Source of the DNA: a virus
Lineage: Duplodnaviria > Heunggongvirae > Uroviricota > Caudoviricetes
DNA length: 24,505 nucleotides
Virus record (IMG/VR): IMGVR_UViG_2548876862_000002
Coordinates: 1 to 24,505 of that record
Direction: 5' to 3' (one strand)
In this document: positions 2,279-21,594 of the stretch, piece by piece
Layout: every line of letters begins with the position of its first letter
How positions within the stretch are numbered: position 1 is the stretch's first letter
Notes under the pieces: generated by a model
What the model was told of the DNA's origin: nothing
Seen by the model: only the letters and a program-made list of their open reading frames with translations
The model's database searches: none
Program-made: the position numbers and the translations under genes

Positions 2279-4753
2279 TTATTGCGGAGTGACATCCTGA
2301 GGTCGCCACCAGTATGTCTGATTAAACTCTTTCTTCGAACGTTGCTCCATTTTACGCAAATAGCCTGGTGAAAAATACTCCTGCATCTGGTTAAAGATCA
2401 TATGATCGAGAGCCGCCTTTAAGTACCAGAGATTCGCACCTGGCATCAAACCTTTCCCCAGCTTCACCAGATCACCACCAGTCTGCTCACTCTTCCCTTC
2501 CACAGCATTTAACGGTATGCCCTGAGCAATCTTCACTACGTCATCAACCAGACCAGCTACCGGGCCAAGCATCGACGCCAGTGCGCCGCTTCCGTACCTA
2601 GTGTGATCTGACAATAAAAAGTCACCGTAAAGGCCAAGACCACCACCTTTCAGTAGAGCACCAAGCCAGAATTTTGCGGCATCTTCTCCTGTCATCTCTC
2701 GAGGATTACGACCAGACGCAAGGTCGTTAAGTTGCTGCGACAAAGCGCCAAGAATGGTCGTACTGGCAATAAACGTCGCAATATATGCCGCACGACCACC
2801 AGCAGACGGCATACCCATAGCGCGTGACCAGTGACGCATAACCACCGAGATAGGGAACGATTTAAACAGGAAAACACTTCTCGTTAATTCACCTTTCCAT
2901 GTTCCACGCTGAATACCAGAACCGGTTATCAGTTGCTCACGTGCTCCCGGTGTAATAACAGCCATATCAACTTCTTCAGTTACGGCACCGAGCAGTTTAC
3001 GCATTGCCTCAAATTTCACGCGTTCAGGCTCACCAAGATGTTTAACTGCTGAATCAGGGATACGCATAATGCTTTCTGGTGTCAGCATCGTATTATTGCC
3101 GTTCCCCCAGTCCTCCTGTTGCGCCAGCTTCCATACGCTCCAGTCTGTGTCAGTAATCCCTTTGCTTTTCAGGATGCGAAAATCAGAATCATCGAGGCTA
3201 CGAAGGTCTGGTGTCCGTGACACTACTTCTCCCAGGCTTCCCATCATGGTTACGCCATAGGCGCGCTTGTGCGCATCTGACCATGCTGTAAGCCCACTGG
3301 CACGCATTACCGCCGTTGCAGCCCAACGAGACACAGACGGCCCCATATTATCCATCGCCCAGCGGTTAACGCTGCCAAGTAGAGATTCCATCGCCAGACC
3401 AGCGCGGCGCGCCCGTGCAAGTTCTGTACGGTTCGTTGGGTCCATAGCTTCAAGCTGGTTGCGGAATAACTGGTTCATTGGAAGGTTGGTAACCTTCGCA
3501 GACAGATACATGGTTCCAAGATCAGAGAACGATGACAGCAACGCGGATCCGAGTCTGCTGGCAACCAACCAGTTGCGGATATTGTCAGACCATCGCGCGA
3601 TGTGCGGATTCGCTACAGGCTGTGTCTTTCCGGAAATAAAGTTGTACAGATTCTCTGTGTTGTTCGCCAGCCGCTCGACTTTACCGGTTTTACTCGGGTT
3701 AGCTGTTGCCGTTTCTGCCTTCACCTGATCAAGAAGAGAGCGGAAAACATGATCGGGGTTTGGGCCATATGTTTCGACCAGTGCAATATCTTTACTGATA
3801 CCTTCAAGGTGACCGACCATGATTTCCCATAGAGAGCGATCGCCATAAAGTTGCTGATATTGCAGATAGGAATCTGCATCTTTGAAATGTATCTGTCGTG
3901 ATGCATTACCACGGTTAGCACGTGCGCCGGAAATTCGCATTCCGGTATCAGTAAGCTTATTCAGCCCACCAGTAGCGATCGTGTTATAAGCCTCTCCAAG
4001 AAATGCAGACAACTCGGCATCGTTCATCAGTTGTCCATCGGCTCGGGTATAATATTTGCGATCCAGCTTACCTATAACATCGCTAACCCATTTATCTTTT
4101 GATACCGCCCCAACCTTTTCCATAGAATGATGTTGAGGGATCCCCCAGTTTTCGAGATAGCCAATGTCCCCACCAGCATCATTAAACCGGCGGCGAAGTA
4201 GATCTGTCACTTCTCTCCACGCCTTAGCACCTTTTCTTGCTTTAGCATTGCCAGTATTTTGCCCTCGCATTTCATATACCAGGTCACGCACGCCCGCTTC
4301 ATCTTCAAACAGGCCAAAAAAGCGAGGATCAACTGCTTCAAATGCCTCCTGCAATTGACTCAATGCATAATCACGAGTGGCTTTTGTTCTGGATTCAACA
4401 GAGAGGAAATTCGATTTACCGTCTGCATTAAAAGCAATAGTACGGTTAAGAGCGCCAAGTTTCCCATCAGCCCCTTGATAGCTATTGATAAATTTATCCA
4501 ATCTCTGACGTGCGGCTATAGTGAGGGCCACACGACGTTTCTTTAATGCCGCTTCTCGCTGTAATTCTTCAGATGCCAATTGTGCTGCACGATACAACCG
4601 TTCTGATTCGGAAAGTTGTCGCCACGACATCGGGTCATCACGAGCAATGGAGCGCATATTTCGATAAATGCGGTCTTCAATGTTCTGTATTTCTCGCGCC
4701 GTTAACGTGCGCTGCGCCGCCTGCTGGACCGCTTGTATACATTCCTGTCTCAT
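2279..4753 (-). CDS. Internal virion / ejection (core) protein, 824 aa
   Basis: ATG at 4753 with SD GAGAGG 9 nt upstream. It is the last large gene of the virion operon, in the position of the C-terminal part of a T7 gp16-like ejection protein. Function is inferred from position and size only. Confidence 0.6.
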   Translation of the reverse strand: MRQECIQAVQQAAQRTLTAREIQNIEDRIYRNMRSIARDDPMSWRQLSESERLYRAAQLASEELQREAALKKRRVALTIAARQRLDKFINSYQGADGKLGALNRTIAFNADGKSNFLSVESRTKATRDYALSQLQEAFEAVDPRFFGLFEDEAGVRDLVYEMRGQNTGNAKARKGAKAWREVTDLLRRRFNDAGGDIGYLENWGIPQHHSMEKVGAVSKDKWVSDVIGKLDRKYYTRADGQLMNDAELSAFLGEAYNTIATGGLNKLTDTGMRISGARANRGNASRQIHFKDADSYLQYQQLYGDRSLWEIMVGHLEGISKDIALVETYGPNPDHVFRSLLDQVKAETATANPSKTGKVERLANNTENLYNFISGKTQPVANPHIARWSDNIRNWLVASRLGSALLSSFSDLGTMYLSAKVTNLPMNQLFRNQLEAMDPTNRTELARARRAGLAMESLLGSVNRWAMDNMGPSVSRWAATAVMRASGLTAWSDAHKRAYGVTMMGSLGEVVSRTPDLRSLDDSDFRILKSKGITDTDWSVWKLAQQEDWGNGNNTMLTPESIMRIPDSAVKHLGEPERVKFEAMRKLLGAVTEEVDMAVITPGAREQLITGSGIQRGTWKGELTRSVFLFKSFPISVVMRHWSRAMGMPSAGGRAAYIATFIASTTILGALSQQLNDLASGRNPREMTGEDAAKFWLGALLKGGGLGLYGDFLLSDHTRYGSGALASMLGPVAGLVDDVVKIAQGIPLNAVEGKSEQTGGDLVKLGKGLMPGANLWYLKAALDHMIFNQMQEYFSPGYLRKMEQRSKKEFNQTYWWRPQDVTPQ

Positions 4754-16063: not shown

Positions 16064-16360
16064 TCACTCCTGTTCACTGGCCTCTTTGGCCATCTTCAAA
16101 TACTGTTCAGGGCAATGCGCCATAACGCGCTGAAACAGTTCCAGCGCCAGATTGCGTTGCCCCTCATTAAATGCCATTGCCATAGCGTCCATCGGTGAGA
16201 TAGCGGAAAACACACGGCCTTTCTCCAGCACCGACCAGACAACGCGACGCCCCTGTTCACTGCTCATGACAAAGCGAATGTCATCAATTTCACGCTGCGC
16301 CATGTCACGTTGCTTACGGGCGTTTTCTTCTTTCAGTTGATCGTCTTCGTAATCTGTCAT
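16064..16360 (-). CDS. Hypothetical small acidic protein, 98 aa (head-assembly associated?)
   Basis: ATG at 16360 overlapping the portal stop (ATGA). Charged, helical composition. Confidence 0.55.
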   Translation of the reverse strand: MTDYEDDQLKEENARKQRDMAQREIDDIRFVMSSEQGRRVVWSVLEKGRVFSAISPMDAMAMAFNEGQRNLALELFQRVMAHCPEQYLKMAKEASEQE

Positions 16361-18036
16361 TGTGATTGCCCACCCTGACCACTAACTGCATTCGCCATAG
16401 CTGACAAAACACTCGGATCCGAAGTTTTAGCTTCGCTTAGCGTCTTGGCACCCTGTGCCGCCGCCATCCCCATCGCCATCATTTGTTGCTGCTGTTGTTG
16501 CTGTGCCCGTTGCTGGCGAGCCTGCTCAACCTGTTCCTGCGGAACAATGACGGTTGGAGACACTCCAGACATATCAGCGAATGCATCGATCGCCTGATCA
16601 ACGTTGAGTTTGTCGAGAGCTTCTGGTTTCGCTTGCGCAAGTTGACCAATGAAGTTGACCGTAGACGCCAGACTGGACAGGCCGATAGACTTCTGCGCCT
16701 GAGCCATGACGGAAATGTATTCGACCTTCAGGGGCATACCTTCCATCGCGTCAGGCGGTGGCGGCAGCATGTTTTTACGCACCATCATCGAGAAAGCGCG
16801 GTCAATGAGAGGATTAAGACATTCGTCGTTCAGACGCTCCAGTACCGGCCCCAACATCAGAAGTTTTTCTTCTTTCATTTCGATCACCGCTTCAACAGGC
16901 ATCGAGCGGGTATTGATGTTCTGCAACATCATGAACAGATCGACAAAGTAGGCGCTGTTAATGATTTGACGAGTGTCCTGAATGTCTGCCACCAAATCTG
17001 CTGTACTGGGGTTAACCAGATAAGCAGGCCTGAAGCCATCCTGACCAGTAATCTGATCGATATACGTGATGTCGCCAGGAAGAAGGGAGGCGCGCTGATT
17101 CTTGAGGGAAGTCGGAGCAACCATCGGCGGATTGGTGGCTTTATCAATCAACTGCGACTTGCGCTTCTGGAGAAGCTGCAATGCCTTAACAGGTCCAAGC
17201 GCCAGCATACCCGGGCATGATGATCCATAAACATCTTCGCCGTTAACTTCCCAGCGCGGAGCCATAATTGGAAACTCATCGAATCCGGACTCACGCAACA
17301 ACTTGTCGTTATCGCCACCAACCTCGTAATAAACCGATTTGAATGGCTTGTTCTTGCTATCCAGCTTCGATGTATCGCGGTCAATGTTCGGGTAAACCGA
17401 ATGCATCACTTCAATCCACTTCTCGTAGGTGCCGCTTTCCCACATGCTTTTTACGGATTCGCTGACGTTATTTAGCCCGAACTCCTGAACAAGCTGACGA
17501 ACAGTCATAGAGAACTTGCGAAAACAAGTGTCCACACTGCCACGAGGTGAGTTAGCCAGGTAGTAACTGCCTATCGGGAATGGCATTGTGCGAATGATGT
17601 CCTCGTCATCCTCCAGCACTGCCATTGCACCAGTGCTGTATGTGCCGAGGCTTCCGTATAACTGCGGCAGCGACTGATAGAGATTCGACTTATTGAACAT
17701 ATCGTTCATGCGGTTCTGCACCGCCTCAAGCCACAACTTAACAGGGCCATAATCCATCATTTCAGGATCTGGCGTAGCCAGGCGAAACCACGGACGCGCG
17801 GGGCTTGTGATGCCTGACATCATGCCGCTGGCGAGAGTGCGCGCCGCCATAGTCCCGGTCGAATCAATAATGCGTGTATTGCGTCGGTCGTTACGGTTGA
17901 CCTCAGAAGTCAGAAAGCGGGAACCACGCAGGTTGATGTAATCACTCAACTCGCGCCAGTGCGGCTCGAACGATTGACGCTCGCTTTCAAGTTGTGCGAA
18001 CTGTTTGTTCAATCGCTCTTTAGTTGTTTCCGCCAT
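16357..18036 (-). CDS. Portal (head-to-tail connector) protein, 559 aa
   Basis: ATG at 18036 with SD GGAG. The C-terminal Q/A/M-rich tail (QQRAQQQQQQQMMAMGMAAAQGAK) and overall size resemble the T7 gp8 portal as recalled. First gene of the structural module. Confidence 0.7.
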   Translation of the reverse strand: MAETTKERLNKQFAQLESERQSFEPHWRELSDYINLRGSRFLTSEVNRNDRRNTRIIDSTGTMAARTLASGMMSGITSPARPWFRLATPDPEMMDYGPVKLWLEAVQNRMNDMFNKSNLYQSLPQLYGSLGTYSTGAMAVLEDDEDIIRTMPFPIGSYYLANSPRGSVDTCFRKFSMTVRQLVQEFGLNNVSESVKSMWESGTYEKWIEVMHSVYPNIDRDTSKLDSKNKPFKSVYYEVGGDNDKLLRESGFDEFPIMAPRWEVNGEDVYGSSCPGMLALGPVKALQLLQKRKSQLIDKATNPPMVAPTSLKNQRASLLPGDITYIDQITGQDGFRPAYLVNPSTADLVADIQDTRQIINSAYFVDLFMMLQNINTRSMPVEAVIEMKEEKLLMLGPVLERLNDECLNPLIDRAFSMMVRKNMLPPPPDAMEGMPLKVEYISVMAQAQKSIGLSSLASTVNFIGQLAQAKPEALDKLNVDQAIDAFADMSGVSPTVIVPQEQVEQARQQRAQQQQQQQMMAMGMAAAQGAKTLSEAKTSDPSVLSAMANAVSGQGGQSQ

Positions 18037-18050
18037 TTCAATGACTCCGG

Positions 18051-18257
18051 TTACTGACCAAGCAGCGTTTTACCGCTGGTATTAGCGGTTGATGTGTCGC
18101 CCTGAGAACCGGTAAGCAGCGTAGAACTACGACCAGCAGCAGCGCGACGGCGACGTGTTTCTTCGTCGCGGGCATCAACAACGGCGGCATCCTGCTCCTG
18201 TGGTGCTGCCTGAACTTCTGGTGTTGCAGGCACTGATGGTGAGCTACCCATGCACAT
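18051..18257 (-). CDS. Hypothetical small Ala/Pro/Arg-rich protein, 68 aa
   Basis: ATG at 18257 with SD GGAG. The translation initiation region is almost identical to that of the portal gene. Low-complexity composition, so coding status is uncertain. Confidence 0.35.
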   Translation of the reverse strand: MCMGSSPSVPATPEVQAAPQEQDAAVVDARDEETRRRRAAAGRSSTLLTGSQGDTSTANTSGKTLLGQ

Positions 18258-18325
18258 ATCAATGACTCCGTACGCAATTAAATTATTACCAATTTAACCA
18301 CATATGATTTATTTATCGTAGATAG

Positions 18326-18354
18326 TTGACATTTAACGCACAAATTATTACCTT
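18326..18354 (+). promoter_or_regulatory. Sigma70-type promoter candidate: perfect -35 TTGACA, 17-bp spacer, -10 TACCTT
   Basis: TTGACA at 18326-18331 and TACCTT at 18349-18354 in an AT-rich, ORF-free region. It points toward the leader and the tRNA. Confidence 0.4.
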
Positions 18355-18684
18355 TTAGGTAACTAAAAAGTTCATTCCGGTTACTAACCTGACTGGCTTG
18401 TCGTTAAATTGAACAGGTGGAGTGAGCTTTTATTTTGAGCAGTACGGCGTATGGCACATGCGCCGATAGCGGTCTGGATACGTTTAAGGGGCACCCTCCC
18501 TTGCTCGAGCAAACGAACCAGGTAGCCGGAATGTGCAAGTCGAGCGGTTTTATTCCGCGCACGGGGATTCACCATCCCGGCGATTCGGTGTGACACCTCG
18601 GAAGAGACGAGGGTGCAACGATGAGAGCATTTATGGAGCTGCGACAAAGTGTGGTGCCTTAACAGGCTAAGTGCTCTCAGCGTT

Positions 18685-18761
18685 GTGGCATTAGCTCAGT
18701 CGGACAGACCAACCGCCTTCTAAGCGGTTGGTCGCAGGTTCGAATCCTGCATGCCACGCCA
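18685..18761 (+). tRNA. tRNA-Arg (anticodon UCU), argU-like, prophage-encoded
   Basis: Cloverleaf by hand: acceptor GTGGCAT/ATGCCAC (7 bp), anticodon stem ACCGC/GCGGT with loop CTTCTAA, T-arm GCAGG-TTCGAAT-CCTGC, discriminator G and encoded CCA. The D-stem has one mismatch. Strong resemblance to E. coli argU from the D-loop onward. Confidence 0.8.
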
Positions 18762-18804
18762 GAATCACGCCTAAGAACCGTGATGCCAGAAGTTCCAGGT
18801 GCTT

Positions 18805-18847
18805 GGCGGTGATGGTTTCCCTTGAAGGACTATCACCGCCCTTTTTA
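18805..18847 (+). terminator. Intrinsic terminator candidate downstream of the tRNA
   Basis: GGCGGTGAT (18805-18813) pairs with ATCACCGCC (18832-18840), followed by CTTTTT. The loop is long (18 nt). Confidence 0.45.
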
Positions 18848-18924
18848 CAGCAGGACGCCATTGCGATGACTTCATGCTGTAAACCAGTACAGCCACGGAA
18901 GGCATAACTCATTGCTTCCAGTTC

Positions 18925-18948
18925 GCCCGGTTCGCCGGGCATTTTTTT
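18925..18948 (+). terminator. Intrinsic terminator: GCCCGG-ttcg-CCGGGC plus T7 tract
   Basis: GC-rich 6-bp stem with a TTCG tetraloop, followed by ATTTTTTT. Confidence 0.6.
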
Positions 18949-19056
18949 GGCGTGATACGTCACAATTATGATATCGATGCAGATTACGACATACATGAAA
19001 AACATGTCATAGTATCTCCTGAGGTTAATTTCGATTCAAAAAGAGGATGATTTATA

Positions 19057-19404
19057 ATGATTAAAATCAATAACGTACGTGGTGCTAGCGTTAGCGTCAA
19101 CGGAGAAGACTTCACTGGTCATCATATTACGATTAACAATGGAAAAGTGATCGTTGATGGTGTCGAAAAAAATAGCAATCTTGGCGGACAGATTAACGTA
19201 ACAATTAATGGAAGCGTGGAAGGCGTTGAGATTGAAAATGGATCAGTGACTGTAAGCGGTGATGCACATTATGTGAAAACTATGTCTGGTGATGTCCATT
19301 GTTCCAATGTATTGGGAAATGTTAACACTATGTCTGGTGATGTAATCTGCGAAACTGTTGGTGGAAACGCCAGCACAATGTCTGGAAATATTATCAAGAA
19401 ATAA
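19057..19404 (+). CDS. Beta-solenoid-type repeat protein (115 aa), bactofilin-like repeats; moron gene
   Basis: ATG at 19057 with SD AGAGGA at spacing 9, and its own terminator. Internal roughly 60-bp DNA repeats give the protein repeats NTMSGDV...; G-x-V/I-x-G periodicity throughout. No signal peptide. Family assignment is tentative. Confidence 0.6.
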   Translation: MIKINNVRGASVSVNGEDFTGHHITINNGKVIVDGVEKNSNLGGQINVTINGSVEGVEIENGSVTVSGDAHYVKTMSGDVHCSNVLGNVNTMSGDVICETVGGNASTMSGNIIKK

Positions 19405-19410
19405 TTATTT

Positions 19411-19448
19411 AAAAATAAAGCCCGCCAAATGCGCGGGCTTTGTTTTAT
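19411..19448. terminator. Bidirectional intrinsic terminator between the plus-strand moron and the 3' end of the terminase large subunit gene
   Basis: AAAGCCCGC-caaatgc-GCGGGCTTT hairpin with U-tracts on both strands (TTTGTTTTAT on plus; TTTATTTTTAAA on minus). Confidence 0.7.
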
Positions 19449-19489
19449 CCTCACCAGAGGATATCAACGACATTATCCCCACCAGCGGA

Positions 19490-20965
19490 TTAAGCATAGG
19501 GATCGTAATCTGTGATGGCCTTGCCTTGCTGGTTCTGCTGACCGGGAATTCGCAGACGTTTCGACACAGGGAACGCAAACGTCAGCAGTAGCGCATCGCC
19601 TTTACCAGGAGAACGCCCAAGCCGCTCTTTGATATCTTCCTTCGGTTCGATAACGATTTTACCGTCCACTCGAACTTTGTACTCTGCCGCCGACAGGTCG
19701 TCCGCTGTTTCCTGGTCATCCAGCATGCCGCCGAGCCTCAGCCATGTCTTGCATGAGTTGAACATCTCCCCACGCTTGTTAAGCATCTGCGGGTCAGTGG
19801 ACGCACCGCCGAACGGAACAAGTTGCCATGTACGTCCCCAGCCATCACCGATTGACTTCAAACCGGTTCCGTAACCGAAGTCGATGAACACCGCATCAGC
19901 CTGATACTGGTCTTCAAAGTCAGCGATACGCTTCGCCATAATCAGATCGTCAGTGGTCTTGTTGCCGGTCCACAGCACCTTACTATGCAGCCCCTGCCGC
20001 AGGTATATCACAGCGTCATCAACACCGGAGTATGCCGGGTCAACGCCGATTATCACCGGAGCATGTGCCACCTGCGCAGCGGTTATCACCCGTTTCATTG
20101 CCTCGTCAGTAAGTCCGGTAGGGATAAACTGCAATTCAGATGCATCAGGGAATATGCCGCGCACACGGATTTTAACGAAGTCACTGTCTTCCCCGTAGTC
20201 ATCAACCCATTTCTGCAACTGCTGTTTGTTGGTGCCTTCCACCGTCCGGCTGTCAATCTGCGCAGTTTTCCAGCGGTGTTTATACTTGCGGAAACATTCA
20301 CGGAATCGCCCGGTATTACGCGTCGGGTTTCCGAACGCCACCCAAATAATCTCAGTGTCTTCGTCCGTAAGCGCACCCTCGGCAACTTCCCACACCAGAT
20401 CCGCAATGTTCGACGCTTCATCGAATACCACGATGATGCGTTTGCGCTCGTTGTGTAGTCCTGCGAATGCCTCAGTGTTGTGCTCAGACCAGGGGATTGC
20501 GTCAGCTCGCCACCGCTTGTCGTGTCCAGGATCATTGCTGTACATCGCAGTAGCGGTACAGGTAAACCAGTCTTTCGTGATAGCAAGGTTCGACCACTTG
20601 ATAATTTCCGGCCAGGTCTTCGTTCGTAGCTGGTTGTCGGTGTTGGCGGTCACCACGACCTTACAATCCTCGCAAGTGGACATGCCCCAGTTGATCAGCA
20701 TTGAGATGAATGCGGATTTACCAATACCGTGACCAGAAGCGCGTGCCAGCATAAGCGGCTGATAGCGCGTCTCTGGATTCTGCAGGTGATCACGTATCTC
20801 TCGGAACGCATCAGCCTGCCACTGACGTGGGCCGGTAGCATGTGCCAGTTCAGTCCCCTCTTCCCCCCACGGGAACGCATAGAGGGCATAGCCAAGCGGA
20901 TCGTGAGTGAACCCTGCAATATCCTCGATCAACTGCTCTTCAGGAGATAACGCTGTATCTTTCAC
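19490..20965 (-). CDS. Terminase large subunit (ATPase/nuclease), 491 aa
   Basis: GTG start at 20965 overlapping the small-subunit stop (GTGA). Walker A-like GHGIGKS and Walker B-like IIVVFDEAS motifs. Position is immediately after the small subunit. Confidence 0.8.
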   Translation of the reverse strand: MKDTALSPEEQLIEDIAGFTHDPLGYALYAFPWGEEGTELAHATGPRQWQADAFREIRDHLQNPETRYQPLMLARASGHGIGKSAFISMLINWGMSTCEDCKVVVTANTDNQLRTKTWPEIIKWSNLAITKDWFTCTATAMYSNDPGHDKRWRADAIPWSEHNTEAFAGLHNERKRIIVVFDEASNIADLVWEVAEGALTDEDTEIIWVAFGNPTRNTGRFRECFRKYKHRWKTAQIDSRTVEGTNKQQLQKWVDDYGEDSDFVKIRVRGIFPDASELQFIPTGLTDEAMKRVITAAQVAHAPVIIGVDPAYSGVDDAVIYLRQGLHSKVLWTGNKTTDDLIMAKRIADFEDQYQADAVFIDFGYGTGLKSIGDGWGRTWQLVPFGGASTDPQMLNKRGEMFNSCKTWLRLGGMLDDQETADDLSAAEYKVRVDGKIVIEPKEDIKERLGRSPGKGDALLLTFAFPVSKRLRIPGQQNQQGKAITDYDPYA

Positions 20966-21558
20966 TGATTACCATCCTGACGTTCTTTGAGTCGCTTCCT
21001 GGCTGCTGCTATGCGATCAGCAATTGTCACATTCACATTAACATCCAGACGTTCTTTGAACGCGTTGACATCAACATGCTTACCAATCAGCTCAAGGTTC
21101 TTCACCTTGTCAGGCCATTTAATTTTTTTGAGGATTGTCTCTATCGAATCCTCGTTCATGTTCATGATGGTCGATGACAGATCAAAGCCACTAAGCGTAG
21201 TGCGCCAGATTTTCGGCCACTCACGGATTGGTTTAAGGCTCCCATCGTCGTTGAGGATGTCGATCACGTCCATCTGGTCGATCTCCACCAGGCGCATGAG
21301 AACGTAATCAGCACTGACGCGCATTCGTTTGTTGCGCTCCTCCATCAACTCGGCAATCCGTTTTTGAATGCGTTCATCGCGCATCATGACACTGGCTTTA
21401 ACTGCCGCTGTATTTGGGGAGAATCCTGCGTTAATCGCTGCCTGAGTCTGGTTTTCAGGCGTTTTGATGTATGACTGGCAATAAGCCTCCTGCATTGCTG
21501 TTAGTGGCTTAAATTGCGTTGATTTGCGTTTATAGGTTTTAGGTTCAGTAGGCATCAT
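20962..21558 (-). CDS. Terminase small subunit (about 198 aa)
   Basis: The track start at 21636 is TTG and would span the upstream terminator hairpin. The ATG at 21558 (MMPTEPKTYK...) has SD GGTGG. Basic N-terminus and position upstream of the large subunit. Confidence 0.6.
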   Translation of the reverse strand: MMPTEPKTYKRKSTQFKPLTAMQEAYCQSYIKTPENQTQAAINAGFSPNTAAVKASVMMRDERIQKRIAELMEERNKRMRVSADYVLMRLVEIDQMDVIDILNDDGSLKPIREWPKIWRTTLSGFDLSSTIMNMNEDSIETILKKIKWPDKVKNLELIGKHVDVNAFKERLDVNVNVTIADRIAAARKRLKERQDGNQ

Positions 21559-21565
21559 AACCACC

Positions 21566-21594
21566 GTGGTAATAGTTACCGTTGTGGTAATAGT
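21566..21594. repeat. Tandem direct repeats GTGGTAATAGT(T)ACC x2 immediately upstream of the terminase small subunit start
   Basis: Copies at 21566-21576 and 21584-21594, identical over 11 bp, 18 bp apart. Confidence 0.5.

Follow-up and report, generated by a model that had tools for sequence, protein, structure and literature searches.

A tRNA-Arg(UCU) gene of Uetakevirus prophages and the structured RNA motif that precedes it

The tRNA-Arg gene and its surroundings

The stretch of DNA considered here (the window) is the 24,505-nt tailed-phage sequence of IMG/VR record IMGVR_UViG_2548876862_000002, and the element in question is a tRNA gene located on its + strand at positions 18685–18761. 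The region is 97–99.8% identical to Escherichia phage TL-2011b, phiV10 and many Escherichia coli prophages, and the window is a phiV10/TL-2011b-like Uetakevirus prophage. ARAGORN makes a single tRNA call across the 24.5-kb window, a tRNA-Arg with anticodon TCT (UCU in the RNA, 18719–18721), and an Rfam tRNA match (RF00005) covers positions 18685–18758 with a score of 62.5 bits, compared with a gathering score of 29 (E = 1.4e-11). The long open reading frames (ORFs) flanking the gene, TerL (19490–20965) and the portal (16357–18036; PF12236, E = 2e-185), are all on the − strand, and the + strand tRNA is therefore antisense to the late genes. A small gp3-like gene (18051–18257) lies on the − strand side between the portal and the tRNA. 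An earlier reading made without database searches (the sequence-only reading) had proposed a prophage-encoded tRNA-Arg(UCU) of the argU type that lies between terminase and portal, is oriented against the late genes and has a single mismatch in the D-stem. The ORF positions and the two tRNA tools, neither of which rejects the gene, bear out this description.

The secondary structure read from the sequence includes a perfect 7-bp acceptor stem (GUGGCAU/AUGCCAC) and a 5-bp anticodon stem. The anticodon loop is CUUCUAA, the T arm is GCAGG-UUCGAAU-CCUGC, the discriminator base is G and the CCA end is encoded (18759–18761). The features expected of a bacterial elongator tRNA are present with respect to score, acceptor stem length, T loop (TTCGAAT in the gene, matching UUCRANY), G18G19, U8 and A14. 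A fully paired 4-bp D-stem with a Y11:R24 pair is also expected, and here the window copy deviates: C11:C24 is the one non-standard pair in the covariance-model alignment, with the odd base at window position 18709. As described below, this is a defect of the window allele and not of the gene family. Arginyl-tRNA synthetase (ArgRS) of E. coli recognizes A20, C35, U36 and G or A at position 73. The phage tRNA has all of these elements (A20, C35, U36 and G73).

The argU-like designation holds for the isoacceptor type, but the gene is not a copy of host argU. The two tRNAs share 62 of 77 bases, including the anticodon loop, the D arm, the T arm, the discriminator G and CCA, whereas the acceptor and anticodon stems differ by compensated changes and the variable loop also differs. 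A near-consensus promoter is located ~40 nt upstream of argU, whereas no sigma-70 consensus promoter is present directly upstream of the phage tRNA (within 50 nt). The argU gene is the attachment site of DLP12; the phage tRNA is not an attachment site.

Two ORFs antisense to this region were considered and judged to be spurious: 18691–19005 (phrog_4647, the equivalent of phiV10 p04) and 18384–18647 have no Pfam or PADLOC match and are not called by PGAP. The phrog_4647 'hypothetical protein' family seems to be built from ORFs antisense to the tRNA and its terminators, represented in the window by 18691–19005 on the − strand, and is probably an annotation artefact.

Our preferred interpretation, which we consider likely, is that the locus encodes an accessory tRNA-Arg(UCU) of Uetakevirus prophages that is expressed within a + strand unit and adds to the decoding of AGA and AGG codons.

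Distribution and conservation

ARAGORN also calls this tRNA at the corresponding position of phiV10, TL-2011b, Salmonella phage SPN9TCW and Klebsiella phage ST512-KPC3phi13.3. The phiV10 record itself misses the tRNA and has the antisense ORF p04 in its place, and among the matches listed the matching E. coli genome records carry an NCBI annotation of tRNA-Arg. The annotated tRNA-Arg genes of O157 typing phages 9 and 10, phiv142-3, vB_EcoP_ZX5, SPN9TCW, SPC32H and RefSeq E. coli prophages agree with the window gene in identity, locus (TerL to gp3/portal) and strand, and those of the E. coli relatives match the window copy at 76 or 75 of 77 bases. The gene is carried by 78 of the 80 IMG/VR contigs whose portal is 99–100% identical. 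It is thus an ordinary and already annotated accessory gene of phiV10-, TL-2011b- and SPN1S-type Uetakevirus prophages. The literature on phiV10, ZX5, phiv142-3, PAS61 and the O157 typing phages contains nothing about it beyond a one-line mention of one tRNA.

A comparison across three host genera shows no variation at 70 of the 77 tRNA positions, whereas the sequence directly 5′ of the gene does not align; the acceptor-stem differences that do occur preserve pairing as wobble pairs. Taken together, these observations indicate strong purifying selection on what would be a working tRNA. The gene is dispensable, since it is absent from epsilon15, from Enterobacter phage Tyrion and from an E. coli contig (L088).

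Among phages, 1160 records contain a similar tRNA-Arg(UCU) gene, and the argO genes of Stx phages belong to this set. The ileZ-argN-argO tRNAs of those phages are likewise rare-codon tRNAs of temperate coliphages, with 82–84% identity over the tRNA core, but they are positioned upstream of stx in the late PR′ region and point in the direction of the late genes, whereas the window tRNA runs against the late genes and comes after a structured leader RNA. No donor of the tRNA could be named from a scan of genome contigs with an anticodon-arm pattern, which proved too generic (it retrieved chromosomal tRNA-Arg genes of many phyla) and gave a best match of 64 of 74 bases.

In strain NADC1036 the prophage adjoins guaA and its integrase is located 15 kb beyond the window, in agreement with the sequence-only reading that no integrase lies near the tRNA. 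The NADC1036 assembly contains the same prophage both integrated at guaA and as a separate circular record of 38.7 kb (NZ_CP076267.1, 38,709 bp), and this duplicate points to an active phage that excises or replicates spontaneously. For phage ZX5, attP and attB have been assigned to the guaA 3′ end in a paper that also mentions 'one tRNA' (PMC9782041); the tRNA is therefore unrelated to integration.

Codon usage

Codon counts were based on the NCBI gene calls of a near-identical prophage (11160 codons) and on 42 adjacent host genes (14696 codons). AGA occurs 70 times in the prophage and 15 times in the host genes (6.27 versus 1.02 per 1000; Fisher p = 1e-13), and AGG occurs 36 and 4 times (3.23 versus 0.27 per 1000; p = 9e-10). 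The two codons cognate to the tRNA are thus ~6-fold and ~12-fold commoner in the phage than in its host, the relationship expected for codon compensation. They are unevenly distributed among the phage genes. Neither occurs in the major capsid protein, protease, cement protein, Bbp19 or gp3, portal and TerL have ~2 per 1000, and the tail and ejection proteins, replication proteins and small regulators have 8–40 per 1000. The sequence-only reading had suggested that AGA/AGG supply could boost translation of late or moron genes. The enrichment is real and concerns tail, ejection and early genes; the suggestion does not extend to the abundant head proteins, which have almost none of these codons, or to the adjacent moron, which has none.

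A comparison of the homologous TerS-to-gp17 module in two tRNA carriers and two tRNA-less phages gives AGA frequencies of 5.2 and 2.6 per 1000 in the carriers versus 1.3 and 1.7 in the others, with AGG flat at 2.0–2.3 per 1000 in all four. With only two phages on each side, this pattern fits a weaker avoidance of the cognate codon in phages that have the tRNA. Codon supplementation is a plausible function and the best supported one, although not proven, and the moron is not concerned in it.

A putative + strand unit

The features surrounding the tRNA on its own strand suggest how it might be expressed. A candidate promoter is located at 18326–18362, ~330 nt upstream of the tRNA, with TTGACA at 18326–18331, a 17-nt spacer and TACCTT. 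It is kept in three genera, with a spacer that is conserved in length and variable in sequence, and it overlaps the palindrome TTACCTTTTAGGTAA (18348–18362), which is annotated as a repressor operator in the epsilon15 record. Downstream, a 3′ trailer hairpin (ATCACG...CGTGAT, 18764–18784) directly follows CCA and is invariant in E. coli, Salmonella and Klebsiella phages. Two terminator-like hairpins come next on the + strand. The first (18805–18846) has a 14-bp stem that covaries between genera and is followed by CTTTTT; the second (18925–18948) pairs GCCCGG with CCGGGC ahead of ATTTTTTT, and its end is the left edge of a hypervariable moron slot (18949–19418). The right edge of the slot is a bidirectional terminator-like hairpin after TerL (19417–19441), which is an annotated terminator in phiV10. 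The moron ORF begins 14 nt past the second terminator in several relatives (CATTTTTTTAAGGTGAAAATCATG), leaving no room for a promoter.

The palindrome, of form TTACC-N5-GGTAA, occurs five times in the window, compared with 0.29 expected by chance. Its sites lie in the small-gene region at ~1.0–1.5 kb (1058–1072 and 1438–1452), upstream of gp3 (18348–18362) and at the TerS start (21558–21572 and 21576–21590). Their match to the epsilon15 operators suggests that the repressor may directly control the structural operons. A separate block just upstream of gp3 (18275–18320, ~40–60 nt, TTAAATTATTACCAATTTAACCACATATGATTTATTTA) shows 100% identity between the E. coli, Salmonella and Klebsiella phages. 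It is better conserved than the coding sequence and may represent a promoter or a binding site.

We infer that these elements form one noncoding + strand unit in which an operator-overlapped promoter, a structured leader of ~240 nt, the tRNA, the trailer hairpin, two terminators and the variable moron follow one another. The tRNA would be released from the transcript by RNase P and 3′ exonucleases, and charging with arginine by the host enzyme is proposed because A20, C35, U36 and G73 are present. The added decoding capacity would apply to AGA and more weakly to AGG, and would be used mainly by tail, ejection, replication and regulatory genes.

Several observations weigh against an accessory tRNA expressed and used in this manner. 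(i) No upstream promoter passes a consensus scan, the candidate at 18326–18362 being weak and below threshold. (ii) The adjacent moron and the most highly expressed head genes avoid AGA and AGG. (iii) Whole-genome AGA/AGG loads are as high in the tRNA-less phages epsilon15 (8.4 per 1000) and Tyrion (10.7 per 1000) as in the carriers, and demand alone therefore does not explain the presence of the tRNA. (iv) The mismatched C24 allele persists in three prophages with different moron cassettes and is thus not obviously lethal to the phage. Finally, the expression, processing and charging of the tRNA are predictions from its sequence.

The D-stem mismatch

Among 86 loci, C at tRNA position 24 is found in the window and in one IMG/VR contig, and the remaining relatives have G24 and hence a C11:G24 pair. 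An exact scan of the whole collection identifies C24 in two IMG/VR contigs in addition to the window, compared with at least 120 contigs for G24. The latter is also the allele of NADC1036 and HN257, the closest complete genomes. The mismatch noted by the sequence-only reading is thus present in the window copy, but it is not a feature of the family. The three C24 prophages have different moron cassettes and flanking DNA that is ~1.1–1.4% divergent; judged by these sequences, the allele is real and inherited and not a sequencing error.

The predicted consequences for folding are substantial. The Rfam tRNA score is 73.3 bits for phiV10, 72.1 for argU and 62.5 for the window copy, a loss of ~11 bits. 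Nearest-neighbour energies, which take no account of modifications or tertiary contacts, give a gap between cloverleaf and minimum-energy fold of 14.3 kcal/mol for C24, 3.5 kcal/mol for a G24 back-mutant and 0 kcal/mol for argU, and C24 destabilizes the cloverleaf by 6.7 kcal/mol. In the minimum-energy fold of the C24 RNA, the 3′ strand of the D-stem together with position 26 (GACCA) pairs with the variable loop (UGGUC) and extends the anticodon stem to 10 bp. This competing helix is perfect with C24, and the resulting rod-like misfold is favoured in silico. Thus, the window copy may be weakened, and the mismatch is probably a rare and mildly deleterious allele. The classic Hirsh suppressor change of tRNA-Trp affects the same position, 24, and an effect of C24 on decoding fidelity is conceivable.

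The allele raises the question of whether the window copy is losing or has lost its function as a tRNA, the C11:C24 mismatch making it an incipient pseudogene. The broken Y11:R24 pair, the lower score, the energetic cost and the competing helix all point in this direction, as does the viability of relatives that lack the gene. Singleton alleles in other relatives alter bases that are universally conserved (A14 and G18, for example), a pattern consistent with mutational noise in a gene that is not essential. However, 62.5 bits is still far above threshold and ARAGORN accepts the gene, single D-stem mismatches can be rescued by tertiary contacts and modifications, and the allele has been transmitted among prophages that have since diverged in their flanks and cassettes. 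We therefore regard loss of function as somewhat unlikely. The near-isogenic prophages with G24 make the C24 copy, a natural D-stem mutant, one half of a ready-made pair for testing the dependence of the phage on its tRNA.

A structured RNA motif upstream of the tRNA

The ~200 nt upstream of the tRNA are better conserved than the neighbouring genes and retain ~80% identity in unrelated phages. They belong to a structured noncoding RNA motif of ~240 nt and five helices (18445–18678, + strand), which ends 6 nt before the tRNA. P1 occupies 18445–18465; P2 pairs 18469–18476 with 18519–18526; an invariant GGUAGCCGGAAUGUGCAAG extends over 18521–18539; P3 pairs 18564–18567 with 18575–18578; P4 (18596–18612) has the loop GAAGAGA; and P5 joins GAGAGCAU (18623–18630) to GUGCUCUC (18671–18678), with the covariants AAGAGCAU/GUGCUCUU and GAGAGCGC/GCGCUCCC. 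The structure was evaluated on 45 diverse motif sequences using RNAalifold and pair counts, with 500 shuffles and slid controls. For four helices comprising 24 pairs, 97% of the cells are paired, compared with 28–47% in the slid controls. Compensatory double changes occur at 11 of the 24 pairs (94 cells), a result equalled by none of the 500 shuffles. The structure belongs to the strand of the tRNA, as indicated by several G-U pairs that are nearly invariant.

The motif is widespread. It is located between trnI and ban, on the same strand, in P1, P7, D6 and SJ46, where a tRNA-Ile precedes it by 15 nt. It is also present in the lambdoid cdtI phage, in Stx2c and some Stx2a phages, and in Klebsiella, Enterobacter and Stenotrophomonas phages; among the loci compared, copies lie at 2501–2669 of L337 (P1), 2497–2745 of L339 (cdtI) and 2501–2687 of L338 (Stx2a_WGPS2). 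In total, 1833 of 5426 complete E. coli genomes (34%) contain it, with 2465 occurrences, and it is never annotated. Searches of Rfam 15 with E values up to 5 returned no family for it in window positions 18000–19600, apart from the tRNA and terminator-like noise, and none in the lambdoid loci L338 and L339. Known prophage small RNAs (AgvB, AsxR, Pas, DicF and STnc) were rejected as candidates because they are located elsewhere, lie at PR′ moron sites or match only at the level of a terminator, and HK022 put and mEp021 nut were rejected because they lack similarity to it. Covariation thus supports a widespread structured RNA without an Rfam family or annotation, which may have been described outside the literature searched.

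The motif usually follows directly after an early promoter. In cdtI, cI is followed by a terminator, a near-consensus promoter and, after ~45 nt, the motif; a hairpin like the first terminator of the window comes further on, and there is no N-like gene after the motif. This arrangement in lambdoid hosts, next to cI and ahead of terminators and promoter-less genes, resembles that of HK022 put and lambda nut, which are cis-acting antitermination RNAs located shortly after early promoters, and the P4 loop GAAGAGA resembles the nutL boxB loop GAAGA of lambda. However, HK022 putL has no sequence similarity to the motif, and put is ~70 nt with two stems whereas the motif is ~240 nt with five helices, such that the likeness would be an analogy of position and not of membership. 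The motif is possibly a cis-acting leader RNA of repressor-controlled early operons, acting as a processive antiterminator or as an RNA processed by RNase P.

tRNA-like domains in the tRNA slot

The 3′ neighbour of the motif always starts with GTGG. It is tRNA-Arg in 59 unique contexts and a stem-closed domain in 34. This alternative domain, of 100–135 nt and form GTGGT...CCACCACAAC, lies exactly in the tRNA-Arg slot of tRNA-less relatives and is followed by the same trailer hairpin. Examples are found at cassette coordinates 433–645 of L088, 3238–3370 of L090 (Tyrion) and 2742–2855 of L339 (cdtI), and also in L455 and L407. Some of the domains have canonical D and T arms, and the tRNA-Sec model matches the L407 domain weakly (24 bits, E = 0.64); ARAGORN calls no tRNA in any of the 34 contexts. 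The single-sequence fold of the L088 replacement segment is not significant (z = −0.41), and this segment was later placed in the tRNA-like series. In a variant of the linker between motif and tRNA, seen at 3620–3700 of L007 (SPN9TCW) and ~2700–2790 of L338 (Stx2a_WGPS2), two T-arm-like hairpins occur (CTGG-TTCAATT-CCAG and CCG-TTCGATT-CGG), which may be remnants of further tRNAs or extra T-loop modules.

These domains bear on the question of whether the tRNA is mainly a structural or processing element, that is, a tRNA-shaped 3′ module of the leader RNA in which an RNase P cut sets the leader 3′ end, or the shape itself serves the leader, with decoding secondary. The 6-nt spacing between motif and tRNA, the 34 tRNA-less contexts with a stem-closed domain, the proximity of the motif to tRNA-Ile in phage P1 and the unusual acceptor stem, which keeps the GUGG...CCAC closing pairs, are in line with such a role. 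On the other hand, the full anticodon loop, all arginine identity elements and the encoded CCA are kept, and the gene is conserved as a decoder. A called tRNA is missing from 36 of the 45 diverse motif contexts, and the tRNA-like reading of the alternative domains is based on minimum-energy folds with non-significant z-scores. We consider a mainly structural role unlikely. A combination of the two functions can be put forward tentatively, in which tRNA-Arg would be cargo in a tRNA-shaped slot of a widespread ~240-nt leader RNA, shared by Uetakeviruses, P1-like phage-plasmids and N-less lambdoid prophages, and would serve both as decoder and as processing or structural module. In this view the leader RNA, located shortly after repressor-controlled early promoters and succeeded by a tRNA or tRNA-like domain and terminators, may represent a new class of cis-acting RNA.

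A role in counter-defence

Phage tRNAs can evade tRNA-targeting defences (PMC10264068, PMC11555353), and P2 OLD cleaves several tRNAs that include Arg species (PMC12445682). The window tRNA could likewise replace or decoy a host tRNA-Arg attacked by anticodon nucleases or other tRNA-targeting immunity, and its anticodon and acceptor stems are unlike those of argU. Its 7-nt anticodon loop is nevertheless identical to that of argU, unlike the loop-mutation pattern of evasive phage tRNAs. A defence specific to tRNA-Arg(UCU) was not found, and the literature examined on tRNA-targeting defences mentions neither Arg(UCU) nor temperate podoviruses. A counter-defence device is thus improbable.

The moron slot

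The sequence-only reading had also proposed the tRNA as a recombination hotspot that would account for the neighbouring moron. The segment from gp3 to TerL was taken from all loci. The gp3-to-tRNA stretch is constant, measuring 426–428 bp in 83 of 84 loci. The slot 3′ of the tRNA holds 11 ORF clusters with at least eight distinct genes among phages whose portals are 99–100% identical, including genes for a Gp49/Sf6 gp66-like protein, DUF2829, an SPFH-like protein and a coiled-coil protein of 246–310 aa. The window occupant is a low G+C, 115-aa ORF (19057–19404, + strand, phrog_3163), and its cassette is present in 11 of 5426 E. coli genomes. The protein has repeated (T)MSGDV/GNV motifs and no Pfam, NCBIfam or PADLOC family; its resemblance to bactofilin is non-significant (E = 0.88).

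Homology to the window stops at 18948 in all 12 comparisons with different cassettes that retain the tRNA module, and resumes at 19419–19429 in 10 of the 12. The break at 18948 coincides with the final T of the second + strand terminator and lies 187 nt beyond the tRNA, and the one at 19419 coincides with the edge of the bidirectional hairpin after TerL. Since the breaks fall at these two points, the alignments place the cassette junctions at the putative terminators, as in classical morons, and not at the tRNA. The tRNA-bearing segment is itself an indel, in that epsilon15 lacks 18480–18810 and L088 and Tyrion diverge after 18631, with other sequence from 18632 on; this is an event separate from cassette exchange. 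A search of the window for a duplicate of the tRNA 3′ end, allowing up to three mismatches, found none, in agreement with the sequence-only reading, which had seen none nearby. Although a hypervariable cassette close to the tRNA and an indel that includes it might suggest a recombination or integration hotspot, none of the 12 comparisons breaks in or at the edge of the tRNA, no 3′-end repeat is present in the window and integration occurs at guaA via an unrelated 17-bp core (PMC9782041), and this explanation of the moron is very improbable.

Implications

The tRNA itself adds little, as a further example of the commonest kind of phage tRNA that is already in public annotation. The motif that precedes it occurs in one-third of complete E. 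coli genomes and in model phages, P1 among them, and it merits a follow-up of its own. Should the motif govern read-through in early phage operons, this would account for the expression of the morons that lie behind the tRNA and have no promoter, and it would supply a missing piece in the regulation of N-less lambdoid phages.

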